62,006 bases of DNA, taken from positions 1 to 62,006 of the forward strand of contig JAFRSF010000030.1 of NCBI GenBank assembly GCA_017427715.1. The letters run 5' to 3'. The notes beneath the pieces were generated by a model. It had not been told where the DNA came from and made no database searches. It worked only from the letters and a program-made list of their open reading frames with translations. This DNA comes from Alphaproteobacteria bacterium. GTDB taxonomy: Bacteria > Pseudomonadota > Alphaproteobacteria > Rs-D84. Positions 11,494 through 18,934 of the stretch are shown piece after piece (within the stretch, counting starts at the first letter, position 1; the number at the start of each line of letters is the position of its first letter). A program made the position numbers and the translations under genes.

Positions 11494-11568
11494 TGGCAGT
11501 CCCAATGGGAATCGAACCCATGTTACCAGAATGAGAATCTGATGTCCTGACCGCTAGACGATGGGACC
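11494..11568 (-). tRNA. tRNA-Glu (anticodon CUC)
   Basis: Hand-folded 75-nt cloverleaf: GGTCCCA TC GTCT AGCGGTCA GGAC A TCAGA TTCTCAT TCTGG TAAC ATGGG TTCGATT CCCAT TGGGACT G CCA. The body resembles bacterial tRNA-Glu, and CCA is encoded. Confidence 0.88.
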
Positions 11569-11728
11569 ATATGCGTACATATTATACAGAAACATTTCTG
11601 TTTTCAATCGTTTTTGAGCAATTTTGTAAAAATTGACAATATCGGCTTGACTTTTTTTTTTTTAGTATATTATTGTGGTGATGGAGAGAAAATATTCTCT
11701 TGAATGTGATACAAAGAAGGAGCAAGAA

Positions 11729-12064
11729 ATGACAAACAAAAGCAATAAAATGCGTTCAGCATCAAACAAACTTAAAGAAAGTAATGATTTGCATACGGTA
11801 TATGGTGATTTAATAGAGATACGCAAATCGTTAGCAGCAGCAGGTTGGAATTATGATTATTATCCAATTTCTGTATGTAACGCCTATATAAATCATATAG
11901 GTATTTTAAAGGATATTAAACTTGCATCACCTGTTTCAAAAATTGCAGAAGAAACCGATAAGTTTTTGTTGAAAGAGGTGTCTTTGTTTATGAAAGATAT
12001 GCAAAAATTGATTGCTGGATATGAAAAATCAAAGATGCTTGGTGATAATGAAAAACAAAGATAA
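11729..12064 (+). CDS. hypothetical protein
   Basis: Track ORF is 11675..12064. ATG 11729 has a strong SD (gaaggagcaagaaATG). A terminator follows. Confidence 0.5.
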   Translation: MTNKSNKMRSASNKLKESNDLHTVYGDLIEIRKSLAAAGWNYDYYPISVCNAYINHIGILKDIKLASPVSKIAEETDKFLLKEVSLFMKDMQKLIAGYEKSKMLGDNEKQR

Positions 12065-12070
12065 AAAAAT

Positions 12071-12097
12071 CCCGCCAAATCGGCGGGTGTTTTTTTA
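12071..12097 (+). terminator. rho-independent terminator
   Basis: cccgcc-aaatc-ggcggg followed by a T-run. Confidence 0.85.
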
Positions 12098-12323
12098 TCT
12101 GTGCTTTTCGTTGGGGGATACTTGTATTTTAAAGGTACGTTTAAAATCAAGTATTTTTTTGCATTTTTTTGTTTTTTCATTTTTCTTTTGTAATCCGCAG
12201 AAAACCGGTGTTTGTAGCCGTTTTTGTATTTTTTGTATTTTACCTTTTTATTGGACTTCCACAAACGTACCTTTGTGTAATAATTTCCTATCAGAGAATT
12301 AACAGTTTAGGAAGGGGAAATTT

Positions 12324-13235
12324 ATGAAAAAAATCATGATATTAGTATCTTGTTTGACATTGTCTGCGTGTGGTGGTGATATAAGTTGGCTTGGTAATTT
12401 ATGGAACGTACCAGAAAATACGACACCAGCAACACAACCATCAATGGATGAGGTTATTGCTATAAATCAAAATGTGACAATGTTGTCCACCCAATTGGAT
12501 GACGGGACCGATATTTCTGATGTTACGTTTATTAATAATGCTTATGAAGGATACAGTTTTTCGTTGGATTCTGATAAACGTATAGAAGGTTTTGTTAGAA
12601 ATTATGATGGTAAACATTATACAAGAGATTCAAATTCAAATGTTTTTATAGATGATGAAAAAGATTATCGTTACGCATTTGAAAGTTTTGATGAAAATCA
12701 TGTTTTATCGTATTCTGATTTTGGCTTGTTTGATTACGAAGACGATTTTGGCAACGATATGTTGTTTGTTGGTGGATATAATTCAAAACGCATTGACAGT
12801 CCAACAGATTTATATGATGGTTCTGACCCACTTTTTGTGGGCAGCGCAGTTGCTAGGATAGAACGCTCACATACAGGTGGTATCATTGCAAAAACCAATG
12901 ATGCCAGTTTAGCTTTTGGAACGACTAGTTATAAATTATCAATGCCTTTTCATTCACAAGGTGCCGGTGGGGACGATTATTACAATGTAACATATCACAG
13001 TGATGGTAATAAACTAGTATTTGATGGTGGTTATACCGGTGATTATAAATGGAAAGAAGATACAGGCAGTGGTGTAAGTATGCCGGTTGGTATGGGGTCT
13101 GGGCCTATGGCTTATGGTGATAATGGTGTAACCAAAGAAATTGTGGGATTTGTAGGAGTAAGTGGGACAGACCAATATGATTCAAGTGTGACATTTGAAG
13201 CAGTATATGGATTAACCAAAACAAATAATAAATAA
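12324..13235 (+). CDS. surface-type lipoprotein with TbpB/fHbp-like C-terminal beta-barrel pattern
   Basis: Lipobox ILVSCLTLSAC-GGD. The C-terminal end YGDNGVTKEIVGFVGVSG...VTFEAVYGLTK resembles the terminal strands (FYG..A.E.aG.f...aFGa.k) of the transferrin-binding-protein-like lipoprotein barrel. Confidence 0.5.
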   Translation: MKKIMILVSCLTLSACGGDISWLGNLWNVPENTTPATQPSMDEVIAINQNVTMLSTQLDDGTDISDVTFINNAYEGYSFSLDSDKRIEGFVRNYDGKHYTRDSNSNVFIDDEKDYRYAFESFDENHVLSYSDFGLFDYEDDFGNDMLFVGGYNSKRIDSPTDLYDGSDPLFVGSAVARIERSHTGGIIAKTNDASLAFGTTSYKLSMPFHSQGAGGDDYYNVTYHSDGNKLVFDGGYTGDYKWKEDTGSGVSMPVGMGSGPMAYGDNGVTKEIVGFVGVSGTDQYDSSVTFEAVYGLTKTNNK

Positions 13236-13270
13236 TAAAAAAATACCCGCCAGTTTGGCGGGTATTTTTT
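13236..13270. terminator. bidirectional terminator between convergent genes
   Basis: aaaaaaa-tacccgcc-agttt-ggcgggta-tttttt. Confidence 0.85.
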
Positions 13271-14027
13271 ATTTTTCTTTATTTTTTTTGTAAATCTTGA
13301 TTGTTAGTGCTTTGTTTAAATCTTCTGGATGAGATTCCAAATGACCTTTGATAATTGGTATAGCAATTTTTTTTAATTCTTTAACCTTTTGGTCACACAC
13401 AGAATGAAACGCAACATGATAAAAATAATTTGATGAATCTTTGGACATATTATAGATTATCTTTTTGTCTGTTTTATCGTGAACATCAATTTTATCAAAT
13501 TTGCCATAATGCATATTATCAACAATTTTTTTGCGATGCGCCAAAGATATGGTGGGGCCTAAACCTGTGGTTAAACCGCTTAGTAATATCAAAATGTTTA
13601 TATATATGTCTTTATCTAAACCTAGTGGTGTCATAATATAATCCCATGCTGCTTTTACTTGGGGGTCAACATGCACAGGGTGGTTTTTGATATATTCTTG
13701 TGCAGCGATATCTGCGGCATCAAAATCTCTGGTTTCTTTTAAAACTTCTTTGTATTTTTTGCGTGATTCAATGCGAACCTGGTCGTTATTGGCGTTCATA
13801 GAAATACCAAAAAGCATAAAATATGTAAACATGCACAAGAAAAACCATGTGATTGGCAAAACATAAGTCAACGCGTTATAATGTGGAATATATTTTTCAT
13901 ATCTGTCTGTGCGTTCTTCTTCTTGTTGCCATTTATATTTTTTTTCAGAATCAGTCGGCCAAACAACAGGGCGCAATTTTGACCATGCTTTGCGTAGTTT
14001 TTTAGCAAGATATTTTGTTATGTTCAT
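13269..14027 (-). CDS. hypothetical membrane protein
   Basis: 252-aa ORF with SD (aaaaggtcaaacATG). Hydrophobic segments LTYVLPITWFFLCMFTYFMLFGI and INILILLSGLTTGLGP. A TTGACA-type promoter lies upstream at ~14083. Confidence 0.55.
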   Translation of the reverse strand: MNITKYLAKKLRKAWSKLRPVVWPTDSEKKYKWQQEEERTDRYEKYIPHYNALTYVLPITWFFLCMFTYFMLFGISMNANNDQVRIESRKKYKEVLKETRDFDAADIAAQEYIKNHPVHVDPQVKAAWDYIMTPLGLDKDIYINILILLSGLTTGLGPTISLAHRKKIVDNMHYGKFDKIDVHDKTDKKIIYNMSKDSSNYFYHVAFHSVCDQKVKELKKIAIPIIKGHLESHPEDLNKALTIKIYKKNKEK

Positions 14028-14106
14028 GTTTGACCTTTTGGTTGGATTATATATTCAGATTAGTATAAAATATATATTTGTCAAGTTTTTTGTTGTGTAT
14101 GACAAC

Positions 14107-14130
14107 AAAAAAGCGACATTGAAATGTCGC
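14107..14130 (-). terminator. terminator of the 14154..14699 gene
   Basis: The minus strand reads GCGACATttcaATGTCGC followed by TTTTTTG. Confidence 0.75.
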
Positions 14131-14153
14131 CTTTGCGTGTTTATATATGTTTT

Positions 14154-14699
14154 TTAATATTGATTTTGATTGATTTCTTCAACTATTTTGCAGACACATT
14201 CGCCAAATGGGTGGGTTTTCTGCCAATCTGCCACATATTTTGTGGTATTTGTATTTGCAGATTCACAGATTTTATTACATGCCTGTAATTCCAATTCTGC
14301 TTGTTCTTTTTCTTTGTGTGGAATAATATTTTGACCGTTGCATAAACATGCATTTTGATTAAATTCGTATTTCGAAGGCATATATGTGCATTTTTTATCG
14401 CGTTGTACAAAAGCACCACCACATGCGTCAAAACATTTCATAGCGTATTTTTGTTTATCTGCGTCATAATAATATTTTTGTGCTTCATTTTTGCGAACTT
14501 CTTTTAATGCATCACGAAAACACACCCTGTCAAAACTGCTTAAATCATCCATGGAATCCATATCTTTGGATAAAATTATTTTTGTTTTTTCTGCTGTGTT
14601 GGATTGTTCGTCCATCGTTGCACAGCCCGATGCCGTCATCATCGCGAAAGTTGCGCCAGAAGCAATCAAATTTTTAAATGTTTCTTTGAAATTTTTCAT
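14154..14699 (-). CDS. Cys-rich putative lipoprotein, hypothetical
   Basis: SD aaggattaaaatATG. Signal/lipobox FAMMTASGC. About 12 Cys in the mature part. TTGACA-16-TATTGT promoter at ~14720-14755. Confidence 0.55.
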   Translation of the reverse strand: MKNFKETFKNLIASGATFAMMTASGCATMDEQSNTAEKTKIILSKDMDSMDDLSSFDRVCFRDALKEVRKNEAQKYYYDADKQKYAMKCFDACGGAFVQRDKKCTYMPSKYEFNQNACLCNGQNIIPHKEKEQAELELQACNKICESANTNTTKYVADWQKTHPFGECVCKIVEEINQNQY

Positions 14700-14781
14700 A
14701 TTTTAATCCTTGGGTTTTGTTCTTATATAACAATAGTATAGAAATCGGATTTGTCAAGAATTAAGATACGTGCCAAATGTT

Positions 14782-15546
14782 TTAGTGTTTTTTTTGCCAT
14801 AATTTACTAAATAACCAAGCGATTTTGCTGGATTGGGTATTTTGTTTAACGGTTTTTGTATTTATATTGCTTTTGATTTTGGGGTCTGGGCGGTCAGATT
14901 GTATCGGGGGGCGTTTTTTCTGTTCTTGTATCAGTTTTGGCGCAGATATTATGTGATTATTTCCATTGTATACAGTTTCATATATTGCACCATTTGTTGT
15001 GCGAGATATTACGTGTATTTCTAAAACAACTTCTGTCATATTTGGTGATTTGGTTTCAATATATTTATTTGGGTCTATTTTTTTGTTTAATAATACTTTG
15101 TAATTTGCATCCATAACGGTTTCGTATACACCGTTTACAGTGTATTTAATTTCTTTGCTGCCAATCAAAATACCATTTTCATAAACACCGCCACCAACAA
15201 AGCGACCAAATTTATCAAATTTTTTATGTGACACAGTTTTATAATTTGAATCCATAATAATTATGTGTCGCGTACCAGCAGAATCAATATCTGTTTCGAT
15301 ATATTGTGCAATTTTTTTGTTTAGATAATTTTTGCCATTTATTAAAACATCATCACGTGAATATTTTTCATCAGACAATATTAATTTGTTTGAATCGTAT
15401 GTCTTTTTGTGATAGTAACCACCTGAAAATATAATCTTTTTTTGATATCCAACCAACCCAATTTCATTATATAATGCAGATACAATAACTTTGTTTATTT
15501 GTTCTGCTGGATAATTATCAGATTCATTTTGTGTCACTGCACACAC
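14782..15546 (-). CDS. hypothetical protein with repeated G-x-Y-E/K-T-V beta-hairpin-like motifs (MORN/YwqK-like?)
   Basis: 254-aa ORF; the start is uncertain (GTG 15546 or GTG 15537). Recurrent motifs: NYKTVSHKKFD, NGVYETVMDANYKVLLNKKID, GAIYETVYNGNN. The tail is basic and Pro-rich. Confidence 0.45.
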   Translation of the reverse strand: MCAVTQNESDNYPAEQINKVIVSALYNEIGLVGYQKKIIFSGGYYHKKTYDSNKLILSDEKYSRDDVLINGKNYLNKKIAQYIETDIDSAGTRHIIIMDSNYKTVSHKKFDKFGRFVGGGVYENGILIGSKEIKYTVNGVYETVMDANYKVLLNKKIDPNKYIETKSPNMTEVVLEIHVISRTTNGAIYETVYNGNNHIISAPKLIQEQKKRPPIQSDRPDPKIKSNINTKTVKQNTQSSKIAWLFSKLWQKKH

Positions 15547-15625
15547 CTTTGCTTCAAAACATTTATAGTATTTTTTCCTATTTTTGCAAGTATTTTGTGA
15601 TACAGACGAAATCCAAATTAAATAT

Positions 15626-16009
15626 TTACCGTGTTTGATTTATGTTATAAATATCAATTGCAGTTTCAAACCAAAAATCGCGAATATTTGTCGTGCATAA
15701 TTGGGTCACAAAAGAATTATAGATTTTTGGATTTATAATTAAAAAATCACAAAAATATATATTTACCAGATTCCATTCTGGCACAATTGATAGCAATTTA
15801 TTAATAAAACCATCTTTGTAATCATTTTGATTCATAAAAAAAGCGCCATCAGATGTAAAGAAATAAATATTTCCAGGTTTATCAATCACGCCAGATTGTG
15901 ATATTAGAAAAAATTGTAAATCTGATATATTTATTTTGTGAAATGTTTGTTCTGTGATTTCCTGAAACCAAACATTTCTTATACAAATAGTATCGTTCTG
16001 GTGTTTCAT
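15626..16009 (-). CDS. hypothetical protein (127 aa)
   Basis: ORF with SD gaaggatattATG, immediately downstream of the terminator of the structured RNA. No recognisable motif. Confidence 0.5.
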   Translation of the reverse strand: MKHQNDTICIRNVWFQEITEQTFHKINISDLQFFLISQSGVIDKPGNIYFFTSDGAFFMNQNDYKDGFINKLLSIVPEWNLVNIYFCDFLIINPKIYNSFVTQLCTTNIRDFWFETAIDIYNINQTR

Positions 16010-16034
16010 AATATCCTTCGCTTTTTTTTATTAA

Positions 16035-16251
16035 AACAAAAGACCACCAAAATTGGTGGTCGGGGAGTTCTCAAATCAGCAAATTAGTGATTTCGCGGTC
16101 TTTCGGTTACCCGTGTTTTATAACCAGCGGCTCCCCGACCTGGGTCAGGGATGATAACGATGCAAAAGCACCGATAACATCAGAATTACGATGCTTTCGC
16201 ACCGAATTTGCTGGGCTTGAGATAGCCCCGAATCCAATTCCAACTGGATTC
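16035..16251 (-). ncRNA. unclassified structured RNA, either a cis-regulatory leader (riboswitch/attenuator-like) or an sRNA
   Basis: GC-rich, non-coding-looking stretch. It is bounded by a TTGCAA-17-TATAAT promoter (16258-16286) and an intrinsic terminator (GACCACCAattTTGGTGGTC + TTTTGTTTT, 16033-16061). A ~25-nt interrupted closing helix pairs 16061-16085 with 16205-16230. There are two near-identical hairpins CGGTGC-GAAA/TTTT-GCATCG and a GTAA tetraloop hairpin. G.U pairs are valid only in minus sense. Confidence 0.6.
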
Positions 16252-16257
16252 ACACCT

Positions 16258-16286
16258 ATTATAAACGTTATTATTCTAAATTGCAA
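16258..16286 (-). promoter_or_regulatory. sigma70 promoter TTGCAA-17-TATAAT for the structured RNA
   Basis: The minus strand reads ttaTTTGCAAtttagaataataacgttTATAATagg. Confidence 0.6.
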
Positions 16287-16490
16287 ATAATGATAAATAT
16301 ACATGCTAAATGTTTTATAAATATAGAGATACAGATGGTTTTGTGTTTTTCTGAATTGTAATTATCTGGTAATATCTGGTAATTTTTCTTGACTTTTTAT
16401 ACCATGTTTGCTTGTTATATTTGCACAAAAAGTATTATAATCTATTCAAACAATCTAGTTTATAAATTAAAACCAAAGGTAATAATAATT

Positions 16491-17144
16491 ATGAAAATTA
16501 GCGAACTTAATTCTGAATATGATAAATTGCAATTACAGTATGGAGCAAAAGAATTGACCGCTATATATAATGGTGGGTGTACTAATAATCCAAATTTTTG
16601 TTTTGTTTTTATGAATCCTACTGGTAAAAATGTTGCATCTAATCCAAATTGGAAAGGAAGAAGATCTCCGTGGATTGGGACTAAAAATATATGGAAATTA
16701 TTTTATAGAATAGGTTTACTTGATGAAAAAATATATATGAATATTATGTCTAAAAAACCACAAGAATGGAACGAAGAGTTTGCAGATTTAGTATATGATG
16801 ATATAGAAAAACATAAATATTTTATAACTAATCTTGGCAAATGTACTCAAATAGATGCTAGAGCATTGCCGGATTTGGTTTTATCTCAATATCTAGATTT
16901 ATTATGCAAAGAGATAGAAATAATAAATCCTAAAACAATCATTACTTTTGGAAATCAAGTTAGTTCTATTGTATTAAATCAAAATATTTCAGTATCACAA
17001 TGTAGAAAACAGAGTTTTTCAAGAATAATTTCTGGCAAGAATTATAATATATATCCGGTTTATTATCCAATAGGAAATGGGATGATGAATATTGGCAAAG
17101 CAATAGAAGATTTGAATTTTATTATAAAAACAAACACTATATGA
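16491..17144 (+). CDS. uracil-DNA glycosylase superfamily protein (SMUG/MUG-like motif)
   Basis: Track ORF is 16389..17144; ATG 16491 follows aaaggtaataataatt. Motif FCFVFMNPTGKN resembles the GMNPG motif 1 of the UDG superfamily. YFITNLGKCTQ resembles the yiTN.vKC block. The C-terminal YYPIGNG sits where the HPS motif normally is. Confidence 0.55.
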   Translation: MKISELNSEYDKLQLQYGAKELTAIYNGGCTNNPNFCFVFMNPTGKNVASNPNWKGRRSPWIGTKNIWKLFYRIGLLDEKIYMNIMSKKPQEWNEEFADLVYDDIEKHKYFITNLGKCTQIDARALPDLVLSQYLDLLCKEIEIINPKTIITFGNQVSSIVLNQNISVSQCRKQSFSRIISGKNYNIYPVYYPIGNGMMNIGKAIEDLNFIIKTNTI

Positions 17145-17276
17145 ATAAATAGATGAATAGTTGCTTGGTATTATATACAGAAAAAGTAATTTTGATAAAA
17201 TGAATGTGATAAATTAAACATGGACAGAATATAATTCTGCGTATAGAATGTGTTACGTAATACAAAGGAATTATCA

Positions 17277-17873
17277 ATGGATAATACACGATTAACCTTG
17301 GACTATTATGATAAAAATGCAGATGCTTATGTCAAAAGTACACAACATGCTGATATGGGTGTTTCTTTAACCAAGTTTTTGAGTTATATCCCAAAAGGTG
17401 GTAAAATCTTAGATCTTGGGTGTGGTTCCGGTAGAGATAGTAAAACTTTTAAAGATGCTGGATTCAAAGTTGTGGCTGTTGATGGTTCAAAAGAATTATG
17501 TAAACAAGCGAGTGAGTTTATAGGTCAAAATGTTATATGTTCTACTTTTCAAGAATATATTCCAAGTGAACAATTTGATGGTATTTGGGCAAATGCATCT
17601 TTACTACATTTGAATGAAAAAGATATGAAATCTGTCATTACCAAATTATCTTTGTATTTAAAAATTTCTGGTTGTTGGTTTATAGCAATCAAATGCGAAG
17701 ATTTTGAAGGTTTTAGAGACAATAGATTTTACAAATCTATGACCAAAGAAACATTTATTGCATTTATGAAACAATTCAAGGATTTACAAATTGATAAAAT
17801 TACAATTACTGTTGATAAACTTGGTCGTGGAAACAGTTGGATAAATGCGTTTGTGTTGAAAAAAGCGAGATAA
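17277..17873 (+). CDS. class I SAM-dependent methyltransferase
   Basis: Motif I ILDLGCGSGRDS, followed by the acidic VVAVDGS post-I motif. ATG 17277 follows aaaggaattatca. Confidence 0.8.
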   Translation: MDNTRLTLDYYDKNADAYVKSTQHADMGVSLTKFLSYIPKGGKILDLGCGSGRDSKTFKDAGFKVVAVDGSKELCKQASEFIGQNVICSTFQEYIPSEQFDGIWANASLLHLNEKDMKSVITKLSLYLKISGCWFIAIKCEDFEGFRDNRFYKSMTKETFIAFMKQFKDLQIDKITITVDKLGRGNSWINAFVLKKAR

Positions 17874-17874
17874 A

Positions 17875-18390
17875 TTAAAGAAATCTATTTACATCAAATT
17901 CAAATTCTGTTTCTGATACATTATCACGTTTTTCGTTTATAAACTCTTTTATTTTTTTACCACCCAATAATTCATATAATTTGCATACTCTACTGCCTGT
18001 TAATGTTCCAGTAGTAAATTTATCTGCACCATCTTGTTTTATACGCTTAGAAAACTCTTTAACCAAACTAAGTGCAAATTTTATATCTCCTATGACAGTG
18101 TCATCGACATAAAGAGCGACAAGTTGCCATATGTTGTTATCATCTTTTCTACCCCATAAATGTCCAACAATCGTATTGTTTTGGGTTGTTATTACAATAT
18201 TTATTTGATTTTTATCACAAATTGTTTTTATTATTTTTTCTCTTCTTGAATCGCTAAGGTATTCAGCCAGTTTTTTATTCAGATATTCTGCAGAATGTAT
18301 ACCAGCAAATGAGCGTTTATAACCAGCGGCACTAATAATTTGTATCGCCTTGGCATCTTCTGGAACAGCATTTCTTATTTGTATATCCAT
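17875..18390 (-). CDS. GNAT family N-acetyltransferase
   Basis: MDIQIRNAVPEDAKAIQ... start, plus a core with VALYVDDTVIGDIKFALSLVKEF...LYELLGG consistent with the GNAT fold. Convergent with the methyltransferase gene, with a 1-nt gap between them. Confidence 0.6.
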   Translation of the reverse strand: MDIQIRNAVPEDAKAIQIISAAGYKRSFAGIHSAEYLNKKLAEYLSDSRREKIIKTICDKNQINIVITTQNNTIVGHLWGRKDDNNIWQLVALYVDDTVIGDIKFALSLVKEFSKRIKQDGADKFTTGTLTGSRVCKLYELLGGKKIKEFINEKRDNVSETEFEFDVNRFL

Positions 18391-18491
18391 TGTTTTTACC
18401 TTTTTCCTAATTTCCACCGTCACATTGTATCATATGTTTTGATTTGTTGTTATTTATTTTTAATTCGAAAGTTTTTTCTAATAAAATTTTA

Positions 18492-18519
18492 TTGACAAAA
18501 ATTAGTATAAATATATAAT
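18492..18519 (+). promoter_or_regulatory. TTGACA-16-TATAAT promoter of tRNA-Gln
   Basis: aTTGACAaaaattagtataaataTATAATagtgctgaaat, followed directly by the tRNA start. Confidence 0.7.
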
Positions 18520-18530
18520 AGTGCTGAAAT

Positions 18531-18604
18531 TGGAGCGTCGTCTAATGGTAGGACAAGAGATTTTGGTTCTCTTTATCATGGTTCGAATCCGTGCGCTCCA
18601 ACCA
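18531..18604 (+). tRNA. tRNA-Gln (anticodon UUG)
   Basis: Hand-folded 74-nt cloverleaf: TGGAGCG TC GTCT AATGGTA GGAC A AGAGA TTTTGGT TCTCT TTAT CATGG TTCGAAT CCGTG CGCTCCA A CCA. The U1-A72 pair is typical of bacterial tRNA-Gln. Confidence 0.9.
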
Positions 18605-18612
18605 ATATTCAA

Positions 18613-18634
18613 ACGCACCCTTGTGGTGCGTTTT
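18613..18634 (+). terminator. terminator after tRNA-Gln (short T-run)
   Basis: acgcacc-cttgt-ggtgcgt followed by tttt. Confidence 0.6.
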
Positions 18635-18778
18635 AATATTGGGTTTGTCGTGCTCGTTTGATTTGAAATCATCGTCCGCCTTTGGCGAGACAGGTTCGAC
18701 TATGAGTAAACGAAAACAAGCCTTGCGCAGTTTGAGTACTAACGAATGCGGCGCAGTGTCGGCATAGCCGACCGAGCC

Positions 18779-18798
18779 AATCCGTGCGCTCCAACCAA
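18779..18798 (+). repeat. exact 20-nt copy of the tRNA-Gln 3' end (att-like direct repeat)
   Basis: aatccgtgcgctccaaccaa occurs at 18586-18605 (inside the tRNA) and again at 18779-18798. Confidence 0.9.
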
Positions 18799-18806
18799 GA
18801 TTTGTG

Positions 18807-18830
18807 CCGGTTTAAGACCGGTTTTTGTTT
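18807..18830 (+). terminator. terminator following the duplicated tRNA-Gln 3' end
   Basis: ccggt-ttaag-accgg followed by tttttgtttt. Confidence 0.65.
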
Positions 18831-18934
18831 TCTTATGATGATTCTTATCCGATTCGATTTTTGATACACAGATTCACCAATAAGGGATATATTTACATAT
18901 ATTATAAATTATTAAATTTTTTAATATTTATCCC

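Follow-up and report, generated by a model that had tools for sequence, protein, structure and literature searches.

The contig JAFRSF010000030.1 (assembly GCA_017427715.1; Alphaproteobacteria, Rs-D84), whose 62,006 nucleotides are referred to here as the window, carries on its minus strand a structured RNA leader of ~220 nt upstream of a gene for a 127-amino-acid (aa) protein. Our best reading of this leader is a new class of cis-acting antitermination switch, resembling an orphan riboswitch. Judged from comparative sequence analysis, it is probably (at a probability of about 0.8) a cis-acting transcription-attenuation leader, a bistable RNA that can adopt either a terminator fold or an antiterminator fold. 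More than 150 homologues in two sequence subfamilies were collected. The four-way chain of covariation among them, which links segment 1 to segment 2, segment 2 to segment 3 and segment 3 to segment 4, is the strongest evidence that the three predicted pairings are real competing helices, and we regard the fold and its switch logic as real with high confidence.

Covariation of the competing helices

The leader RNA had a minimum free energy (MFE) of −97.6 kcal/mol against −60.9 ± 4.6 kcal/mol for dinucleotide shuffles (z = −8.0), and 0/200 shuffles folded as well. A pattern derived from the conserved 3′ half, run against 185,579 species-representative genomes, returned 32 loci, all of them in gut or rumen alphaproteobacterial metagenome-assembled genomes (MAGs) from human, horse, buffalo, deer and sheep. 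These MAGs were labelled Candidatus Enterousia, 'Rickettsiales bacterium' or uncultured Alphaproteobacteria and held several copies each. A covariance model built on 36 sequences then detected divergent further copies in the same contigs, here called subfamily 2, which share the architecture of the main subfamily and differ in core sequences. With a subfamily-2 pattern, at least 120 loci were matched in the rumen and gut metagenomes of the Joint Genome Institute (JGI), including 113 distinct full-length sequences among the matches listed, and all subfamily-2 counts below (out of 113 or 87) rest on those listed matches. Every homologue thus far comes from gut or rumen Alphaproteobacteria, MAGs and metagenomes alike, which agrees with the lineage guessed in the first-pass annotation of this DNA, made from the letters alone. 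Ca. Enterousia is a member of Rs-D84, an uncultured order, and its fermentative genomes are mostly below 1 Mb and lack the tricarboxylic acid (TCA) cycle and the respiratory chain (PMC12306168). A literature search returned no paper linking Enterousia or Rs-D84 with a riboswitch or terminator; this absence, like that from Rfam, is not proof of novelty, and the family is apparently undescribed.

Segment 2 (strand e) can pair with segment 1 (strand d) as helix P4, an anti-antiterminator, or with segment 3 (strand e′) as the antiterminator, AT; segment 3 can instead give its GACC to the stem of an intrinsic terminator formed with segment 4 (Table 1). In the 36-sequence alignment, double changes occurred at 25 pairs of the terminator-on conformer (92.6% of cells paired) and at 17 pairs of the antiterminator conformer (96.5%); for both, 0/500 shuffles and no slid register came near the observed pairing and covariation. 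P4 varied at pair 170:183 (GC in 18 sequences, GU in 6, AU in 5) and AT at pair 188:273 (AU in 24, UA in 11, UG in 1). The search patterns fixed e, e′ and part of d, and the covarying positions cited here were left free. Position 188:273 was free in the pattern and remains unpaired when the terminator forms, so that its variation is accounted for by the e:e′ pairing only. The terminator stem showed double changes at 3 pairs in the main-subfamily alignment. Between the subfamilies, moreover, all segments shift in concert: from main to subfamily 2, d changes from CCCUGACC to CUCCAAC, e from GGUCGGGGAG to GGUUGGAGGG, e′ from CUCCCCGACC to CCUCCAACC, and the terminator arms from GACC...GGUC to AACC...GGUU. 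Terminator and antiterminator share the strand GACC and both covary, as expected of mutually exclusive helices, and the family as a whole shows the conserved structure with compensatory changes expected of an attenuating leader or riboswitch-type element.

Every element listed in the first-pass annotation was located at its given position or a few bases away from it, and the interpretation offered there holds for the most part. It had proposed that CUCCCCGACC chooses among three partners. Two of them, the perfect 10-nt internal complement (16131-16140 with 16058-16067, also recovered by the repeat finder) and the terminator stem, covary; the third, the 5′ GGGG, does not. Its competing-helix logic holds for terminator and antiterminator and is amended here to a four-segment chain, since GGUCGGGGAG also pairs with the upstream CCCUGACC. 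That P4 partner at 16143-16150, the hairpin P1L at 16213-16229 and the hairpin P6 had been missed. A lack of conservation or covariation in the alternative helices had been named as what would overturn the idea, and the collected homologues show the opposite, conservation together with strong covariation. The long closing helix described at first was recovered as a pairing of 16205-16231 with 16060-16085, without covariation in its outermost 4–5 bp. This outer helix (5′ GGGG with 3′ CCCC, 4–5 bp) is broken in 4 homologues in which P1L is compensated, and we rejected it as part of the conserved fold. Both near-duplicate CGGUGC hairpins and the CGG-GUAA-CCG hairpin were found as described; the second CGGUGC hairpin (P3b) and the CGG-GUAA-CCG hairpin (P5a) proved to be optional inserts absent from many homologues. 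The 5′ hairpin GAAUCCA/UGGAUUC, our P0, was recovered by the repeat finder.

Most of the other helices also covary. P0 had 96.8% of cells paired with double changes at 5/8 pairs. P1L, which is also found in subfamily 2, varied at pairs 35:46 (GC 31, AU 4) and 36:45 (CG 31, UG 3, UA 2). In P3, 97% of cells were paired and 3 pairs doubly changed, with pair 61:74 kept as G-U in 32/36 sequences. P5 (94% of cells paired) was especially variable at pair 197:236 (UA 20, UG 4, CG 3, AU 2, GC 2), and P6 covaried in subfamily 2 at pairs 69:86 (AU 30, UA 15) and 67:88 (AU 28, GU 16). AT adjoins P5 and P5 adjoins P6 directly, with junction strands of 0, 0 and 6 nt, so that AT closes a three-way junction.

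Two further helices connect a hairpin loop with a distant strand. P1b, formed by the P1L loop (strand b) and the strand beside segment 3 (b′), had 100% of cells paired in 36/36 aligned sequences, and its 3 central positions were doubly changed in 16–22 sequences; among 32 parsed main-subfamily sequences we counted 13 distinct core triplets, all Watson-Crick complementary. In subfamily 2, the 5-mer before e′ perfectly complements the P1L loop in 108/113 sequences, against 9.5 in a control that used another sequence's 5-mer, and 24 different 5-mers were seen. P2, formed by the strand after P1L (c) and the P6 loop (c′), has at least 7 contiguous base pairs with its own partner in 32/32 sequences and a mean of 3.5 with the partners of other sequences; its pairs comprise 226 Watson-Crick, 6 G-U and 0 A-C. 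If P1b and P2 are loop–strand pseudoknots, all covarying helices can form at once, P4 and the terminator excepted.

Other parts of the RNA are optional or strongly conserved. P3b is missing in L022, L032, L035, L036 and L067, and its position holds a ~330-nt insert in two rumen MAGs (L056:1738-2246 (-) and L060:4597-5107 (+), both of the main subfamily), across which the complementarity of P1b and P2 is kept. P5a is swapped for GUAUAUAU in about half of the homologues. The unpaired stretches CGUAAUC, AGCCGUUGGU and AAAGACCGCGGAAUCA are highly conserved across hosts in the main subfamily. Kissing of the P0 loop (GGGA) with segment 1 (UCCC), looked for by eye only, was inconsistent across members and was set aside. 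Segment 2 contains a GGAG (GGAGG in subfamily 2) resembling a Shine-Dalgarno (SD) sequence, and segments 1 and 3 contain the anti-SD-like CUCC or CCUCC; the ACCUCC of subfamily 2 presumably resembles the anti-SD at the 3′ end of 16S rRNA. A translational layer might be added if segment 3 or segment 1 were also to mask the SD of the gene that follows.

On this basis we propose the following mechanism. Transcription would start at ~16251, and the nascent 5′ untranslated region (UTR) would fold into one of two states. In the OFF state, segment 1 (CCCUGACC) would cap segment 2 (GGUCGGGGAG) as P4 and leave segment 3 (CUCCCCGACC) free to form the terminator with segment 4, halting RNA polymerase 15–25 nt before the SD. 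In the ON state, segment 2 would pair with segment 3, and the resulting 10-bp antiterminator, closing the three-way junction with P5 and P6, would take GACC from the terminator stem and allow read-through into the 127-aa gene. P1b and P2 would link the 5′ and 3′ domains and presumably determine the balance between the two states; the switch would be thrown by a trans factor acting to stabilise the ON fold. The terminator-on fold was the MFE fold and lay 8–16 kcal/mol below the forced e:e′ fold in 9/9 members by nearest-neighbour energies, which ignore pseudoknots, so OFF would be the default. The duplex energies of P1b and P2 are −4.9 and −8.9 kcal/mol, and when these are added to the ON state the two states come close. 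We infer a doubly pseudoknotted ON state, with the P1L loop paired to the strand after P6 and the P6 loop paired to the strand after P1L.

Table 1 Features of the leader and its downstream genes in the window, listed 5′ to 3′ along the minus strand.
Feature	Positions	Strand	Sequence or description	Source
Promoter	16258..16286	-	-35 TTGCAA (16286-16281), 17-nt spacer, -10 TATAAT (16263-16258)	Consensus scan
P0	16230..16251	-	5′-terminal hairpin GAAUCCA-GUUGGAAU-UGGAUUC	MFE fold, repeat finder
P1L	16213..16229	-	Local hairpin GGGCU/AGCCC	RNAalifold
Strand b	16218-16223	-	6-nt P1L loop AUCUCA, 5′ strand of P1b	
Strand c	16205..16213	-	CAGCAAAUU, 5′ side of P2	
P3	16189..16204	-	Conserved hairpin CGGUGC-GAAA-GCAUCG with conserved G-U pair	
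P3b	16150..16181	-	Optional extended hairpin GAUGUUAUCGGUGC-UUUU-GCAUCGUUAUCAUC	MFE fold, repeat finder
Segment 1 (d)	16143..16150	-	CCCUGACC, pairs with segment 2 as P4	MFE fold
Segment 2 (e)	16131..16140	-	GGUCGGGGAG, SD-like, pairs with d (P4) or e′ (AT)	
P5	16093..16130	-	CCG-C-UGGU with ACCG-CGA, enclosing optional P5a and an A/U-rich loop	
P5a	16104-16113	-	Optional hairpin CGG-GUAA-CCG	
P6	16074..16092	-	Hairpin AAUCA/UGAUU (16088-16092 with 16074-16078)	RNAalifold
Strand c′	16077-16085	-	P6 loop, AAUUUGCUG, 3′ side of P2	
Strand b′	16069..16074	-	UUGAGA, 3′ side of P1b, partner of the P1L loop	
Segment 3 (e′)	16058..16067	-	CUCCCCGACC, anti-SD-like, pairs with e or gives GACC to the terminator stem	
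Intrinsic terminator (segments 3:4)	16033..16061	-	GACCACCA-AUUU-UGGUGGUC, then UUUUGUUUU	Terminator scan
Terminator 3′ arm and U-tract	16049-16033	-		
Shine-Dalgarno	16018-16014	-	AAGGA	
127-aa ORF	16009-15626	-	Putative regulated gene, ATG at 16009, no assigned function	
254-aa ORF	15546-14782	-	Next downstream of the 127-aa gene	

Variation among close relatives further illustrates how the element evolves. Contigs of the same species that carry an identical 127-aa protein or the neighbouring protein like uracil-DNA glycosylase (UDG) mostly carry an identical RNA, and the leader has the same orientation in all 9 conspecific contigs that contain it. In L009, which is 97% identical, P1b has undergone a triple compensatory change, from UCUCAA to UAGAAA on the 5′ side and from UUGAGA to UUUCUA on the 3′ side. 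In L010-L013 (for example L010:2311-2840, corresponding to 16010-16260 of the window), the leader body has been deleted, and the junction lies at a GGTG microhomology that joins P3 with the terminator 3′ arm. These contigs retain the promoter and a 20-nt stub of an open reading frame (ORF) and have gained an 80-aa XRE-type helix-turn-helix (HTH) gene that runs divergently from their copy of the 127-aa gene, which is 92% identical. The deletion in these conspecific contigs indicates that the leader is dispensable and is not a housekeeping RNA. L029-L031 have the same HTH-plus-gene module with a ~55%-identical paralogue of the 127-aa gene, the divergent HTH gene standing in place of the leader. 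Leader and divergent HTH gene thus appear to be interchangeable front ends for the 127-aa family.

The same comparisons address a reading at the level of DNA, in which the element would be a repeat such as a miniature inverted-repeat transposable element (MITE), an invertible promoter segment or an attC-like site. The leader is indeed dispersed and multicopy, sits beside contingency-type genes (surface proteins, glycosyltransferases, DNA methylases), contains long-range inverted repeats and varies in presence between strains. However, G-U pairs are frequent in P0, P1L, AT and P6 and A-C pairs are absent, an asymmetry that makes sense only for selection on the transcript of this strand and not for inverted repeats in DNA. 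The helices are hypervariable yet compensated, unlike repeats recognised by a transposase or recombinase, and the orientation relative to promoter, terminator and gene is fixed in all copies. Tandem repeats are lacking, and the deletion variant arose at the GGTG microhomology rather than at element ends. We therefore rejected MITE, inverton and attC-type repeats and consider any such origin highly improbable.

Position before genes and the candidate regulon

At the locus itself, the promoter that had been read from the letters as TTGCAA-17-TATAAT (16286-16258) was recovered by the consensus scan; it is proposed to be of the sigma-70 type, and its position would put the transcription start at ~16251. 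Likewise, the intrinsic terminator said to lie just before the start of the 127-aa gene was located by terminator scan and repeat finder at 16061-16033 (arms GACCACCA/TGGTGGTC followed by UUUUGUUUU), ahead of the SD at 16018-16014 and the ATG at 16009. Between this terminator and the ATG, the promoter scan lists no promoter in the window. The stretch from promoter to terminator forms a GC island, with 45–51% GC against 20–28% in its flanks.

This arrangement recurs throughout the family. A TAnnnT −10 box lies at a median of 33–34 nt upstream of P1L in 33/33 main-subfamily and 87/87 subfamily-2 parsed copies, and is TG-extended in 46/87 of the latter. By a strict test, a hairpin and U-tract follow e′ in 35/38 main-subfamily and 88/113 subfamily-2 copies. 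Among the 138 copies with enough downstream sequence to be assessed, 126 (~91%) precede a co-oriented ORF of at least 60 aa, which starts a median of 51 nt past e′ and ~15–30 nt past the U-tract and nearly always has an SD. The leader therefore occupies, family-wide, a 5′ UTR position directly before a co-oriented ORF. Since this spacing leaves no room for a second promoter, the downstream gene can be transcribed only by read-through of the terminator, which strongly favours conditional antitermination over a stand-alone small RNA (sRNA).

The first-pass annotation had offered an sRNA as an alternative, in which a terminated transcript of ~220 nt is itself a trans-acting product and the adjacent gene is incidental. 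The leader does have its own promoter and a strong predicted terminator, folding predicts the greatest stability for its terminated form, and it is multicopy like some alphaproteobacterial sRNA families. Nevertheless, the position of 126/138 copies before a co-oriented ORF with an SD and no space for another promoter speaks against this view, as does the e:e′ pairing, which is under selection and would be purposeless in a stand-alone sRNA. We consider an independent sRNA family unlikely, and note that sRNA and cis-leader roles are not mutually exclusive.

What, then, would the switch control? At least 80 of the 126 downstream ORFs (at least 63%) have a signal-peptide-like N-terminus. Among 102 distinct downstream proteins outside the 127-aa family, Pfam identified 22 with Listeria-Bacteroides repeats, 3 GT2 glycosyltransferases, 3 DNA methylases, 2 UvrD-type helicases and 2–3 XRE-type regulators; the majority had no Pfam domain. 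The kinds of downstream gene are alike for both subfamilies and form a functional palette of host-facing 'contingency' genes. With the same leader before many genes per genome, most of them secreted or surface-associated, the family probably co-ordinates a 'surfaceome and accessory gene' regulon. A single RNA module of ~200 nt appears to gate most of the variable, host-facing genes of the organism, and it offers a way into gene regulation in a lineage never yet grown in culture.

Some leaders stand before UvrD-type helicases or stand-alone DNA methylases of the EcoRI-methylase and N6_N4 types (L051:1209-3293 (-), L164:723-1667 (+), L145:376-1386 (+), L178:258-1292 (+) and L043:3143-4363 (+)), and the switch may also gate restriction-modification or defence-type genes.

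A more far-reaching version of our reading, which we put forward tentatively and hold to be rather doubtful, is that the family is an undescribed riboswitch class or self-contained bistable RNA toggle that senses a signal derived from the host, the community or a second messenger. It would have a doubly pseudoknotted ON state, and its many dispersed copies would turn on or off the full set of surface proteins, enzymes for surface glycans and DNA methylases in the uncultured gut symbionts Ca. Enterousia / Rs-D84. If true, a genome below 1 Mb would in effect hold an RNA-based equivalent of a phase-variation regulon.

Known RNA classes and candidate effectors

We compared the leader with established RNA classes using Rfam 15, whose 4227 models include riboswitches, T-box, 6S RNA, signal recognition particle (SRP) RNA, transfer-messenger RNA (tmRNA), RNase P and alphaproteobacterial sRNAs. 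At gathering thresholds, only 3 tRNAs were found in the whole window, consistent with the by-eye failure to match the leader to a known class; at E ≤ 10, the leader region gave only noise of 6–17 bits, and 14 homologous loci yielded tRNAs only. ARAGORN reported no tmRNA. A housekeeping RNA (6S, SRP, RNase P or tmRNA) was rejected on the presence of multiple copies per MAG and the deletion in L010-L013. We also rejected an origin from a phage or plasmid: the RNA had no blastn match in phage and plasmid collections, and the 7 hits that a 17-mer scan produced in viral contigs were chance matches, without further similarity, and lay in contigs of 59–72% GC.

Several regulatory designs were likewise set aside. 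A leader-peptide attenuator is not compatible with ORFs that vary in position, frame and length and are absent from L036, L050, L058 and L064; the window's leader has an 11-codon ORF that ends at a UGA within segment 1 and is not conserved family-wide. A T-box leader was rejected for want of a match to RF00230 and in view of the downstream genes (surface proteins, GT2, methylases and others). An RNA like ToxI of type III toxin-antitoxin systems, or like that of a retron, was rejected because there are no tandem repeats and no toxin or reverse-transcriptase domain downstream, and the downstream genes are diverse.

The closest likenesses are partial. Like the pbuE/ydhL adenine riboswitch, the leader lies in the 5′ UTR behind its own promoter and has a terminator just before the SD, its three-way-junction closing helix (AT/P5/P6) shares the 3′ strand with the terminator 5′ arm, and long-range loop contacts organise its junction. 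Unlike pbuE/ydhL, it resembles no Rfam class in sequence or by covariance model, is ~3 times larger, has an additional P4 and a separate 5′ domain tied by two hypervariable helices, and precedes non-metabolic genes. Its topology (1:2 anti-antiterminator, 2:3 antiterminator, 3:4 terminator) is that of the trp, his and phe attenuators, from which it differs in having no conserved leader-peptide ORF and in the ~65 nt of structured RNA between segments 2 and 3. At the level of the regulon, it resembles the c-di-GMP-I/II riboswitches (cyclic di-GMP) of Clostridioides difficile (PMC11477304), with many copies before adhesin and surface genes and control by termination, whereas its architecture is unrelated and no match to RF01051 or RF01786 was found at E ≤ 10.

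Protein-dependent antitermination leaders (LicT/BglG with the ribonucleic antiterminator, RAT; ANTAR; PyrR; HutP) offer the same choice between terminator and antiterminator, a predicted OFF default and a regulon with a shared leader, but the leader has no RAT, paired hexaloop hairpins, PyrR-binding loop or UAG repeats, and no cognate protein gene was found next to the leaders. Finally, like the orphan structured-RNA motifs of earlier surveys (PMC6429828, PMC8632094, PMC5737381), it is a GC-rich island in an AT-rich intergenic region with covariation and a 3′ terminator; unlike them, it is not in Rfam 15 and is so far confined to uncultured gut and rumen Rs-D84, a group apparently outside those surveys. 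Taken together, the leaders form a new family within a known kind of regulator, and both their architecture and their regulon are unusual.

The first-pass annotation had spoken of control by a ligand. Within the antitermination reading, the trans factor is about equally likely to be a small-molecule ligand or a dedicated RNA-binding protein or RNA. Should it be a small molecule, the AT/P5/P6 junction and the docked 5′ domain would form the aptamer of an ON switch of the pbuE type; the signal could be a metabolite or, given the surface-protein regulon, a second messenger of the c-di-GMP kind. c-di-GMP riboswitches occur in many copies per genome, and the many leader copies per genome fit that pattern. 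A true riboswitch also agrees with the large size, the many junctions, the unpaired stretches conserved in the main subfamily, the use of a three-way-junction closing helix as antiterminator and the lack of a conserved regulator gene adjoining the leaders. We nevertheless consider it a possibility rather than the probable outcome: no known class matches, the junction sequences differ between subfamilies that reside in the same genomes, and the downstream genes lack metabolic logic.

Alternatively, antitermination could be mediated by a protein or RNA, in the manner of LicT/BglG, ANTAR, HutP or PyrR or through a trans-acting RNA. Such an effector would bind the leader (at segment 1, P4 or the P0/P3 domain, for instance) and so free segment 2, and the two subfamilies would represent two regulons with co-evolved specificity. 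Conservation of architecture while primary sequence differs between co-resident subfamilies agrees with this view, as do the conserved sequence and G-U pair of P3, the accessory and surface regulon, which lacks a metabolic theme and is typical of dedicated regulators, and the thermodynamic OFF default. Here too our expectation stays below even odds, at the same level as for a ligand. The 127-aa protein has no recognisable RNA-binding fold and is absent after subfamily-2 copies, no candidate protein gene was found beside the leaders, and the paired hexaloop hairpins of ANTAR targets and RAT elements are not present.

Four points weigh against the antitermination-switch reading as a whole or limit its detail. 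The subfamilies share their architecture and little primary sequence at the junction, which is unusual for a single small-molecule pocket. The regulated genes are neither metabolic nor transport genes and give no clue to a ligand. P1b and P2 may belong to the OFF rod, to the pseudoknotted ON fold or to both. And the invariance of e, e′ and part of d within each subfamily is partly by construction, since the search patterns fixed them.

The leader family is a well-supported new structured-RNA family with an unusually clear terminator/antiterminator chain and a symmetric architecture of hairpin loops and strands, which makes it a good candidate orphan riboswitch for ligand searches and a possible entry for Rfam. 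Its covariance model would annotate hundreds of blank intergenic regions in gut and rumen metagenomes and flag co-regulated genes.

The 127-aa gene family and its surroundings

We identified 26 homologues of the 127-aa protein at 54–69% identity, none with a Pfam domain. Their genes lie in four unrelated contexts (gyrB / type II secretion; PDDEXK helicase / exonuclease; YebC / SecB; DUF1523 / GcrA), and in each of the four a leader homologue with its own promoter and terminator stands directly upstream, with the exception of L029-L031. The leader module is portable, being found also before gene families unrelated to the 127-aa protein; among the assessable copies, the 127-aa family was not found downstream of subfamily-2 leaders.

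The protein is conserved, with invariant positions that include S39, C87, D88, P94 and W113, and its AlphaFold model is confident (pLDDT 90.3, pTM 0.85). No match was found in Pfam, NCBIfam or PADLOC, and the best Foldseek match in the PDB had E = 0.6; the fold may be undescribed. With no family match and no fold neighbour in the PDB, we rejected the protein as a recognisable RNA-binding regulator or enzyme. Among four downstream genes, no match to a toxin, reverse-transcriptase or defence family was found.

The locus lies in a low-GC stretch (~11570-18530; ~27% GC against 36% for the window) flanked by tRNA-Glu (11494-11568, -) and tRNA-Gln (18531-18604, +). Its genes encode hypothetical proteins of 303, 252, 181, 254 and 127 aa without Pfam matches, a UDG-superfamily protein, an S-adenosylmethionine (SAM) methyltransferase and an acetyltransferase-like protein, and the stretch may be a low-GC accessory island between tRNA genes. 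At its edge (region 18531-18835), the final 19 nt of tRNA-Gln (AATCCGTGCGCTCCAACCA, 18586-18604) recur ~195 nt downstream at 18780-18798. The sequence between the two copies has a GC content of 0.46–0.54, a fold z of −4.2 and no Rfam family, and a terminator-like hairpin follows each copy; the repeat looks like an att-type duplication from an integrated element, or a tRNA-linked small RNA.

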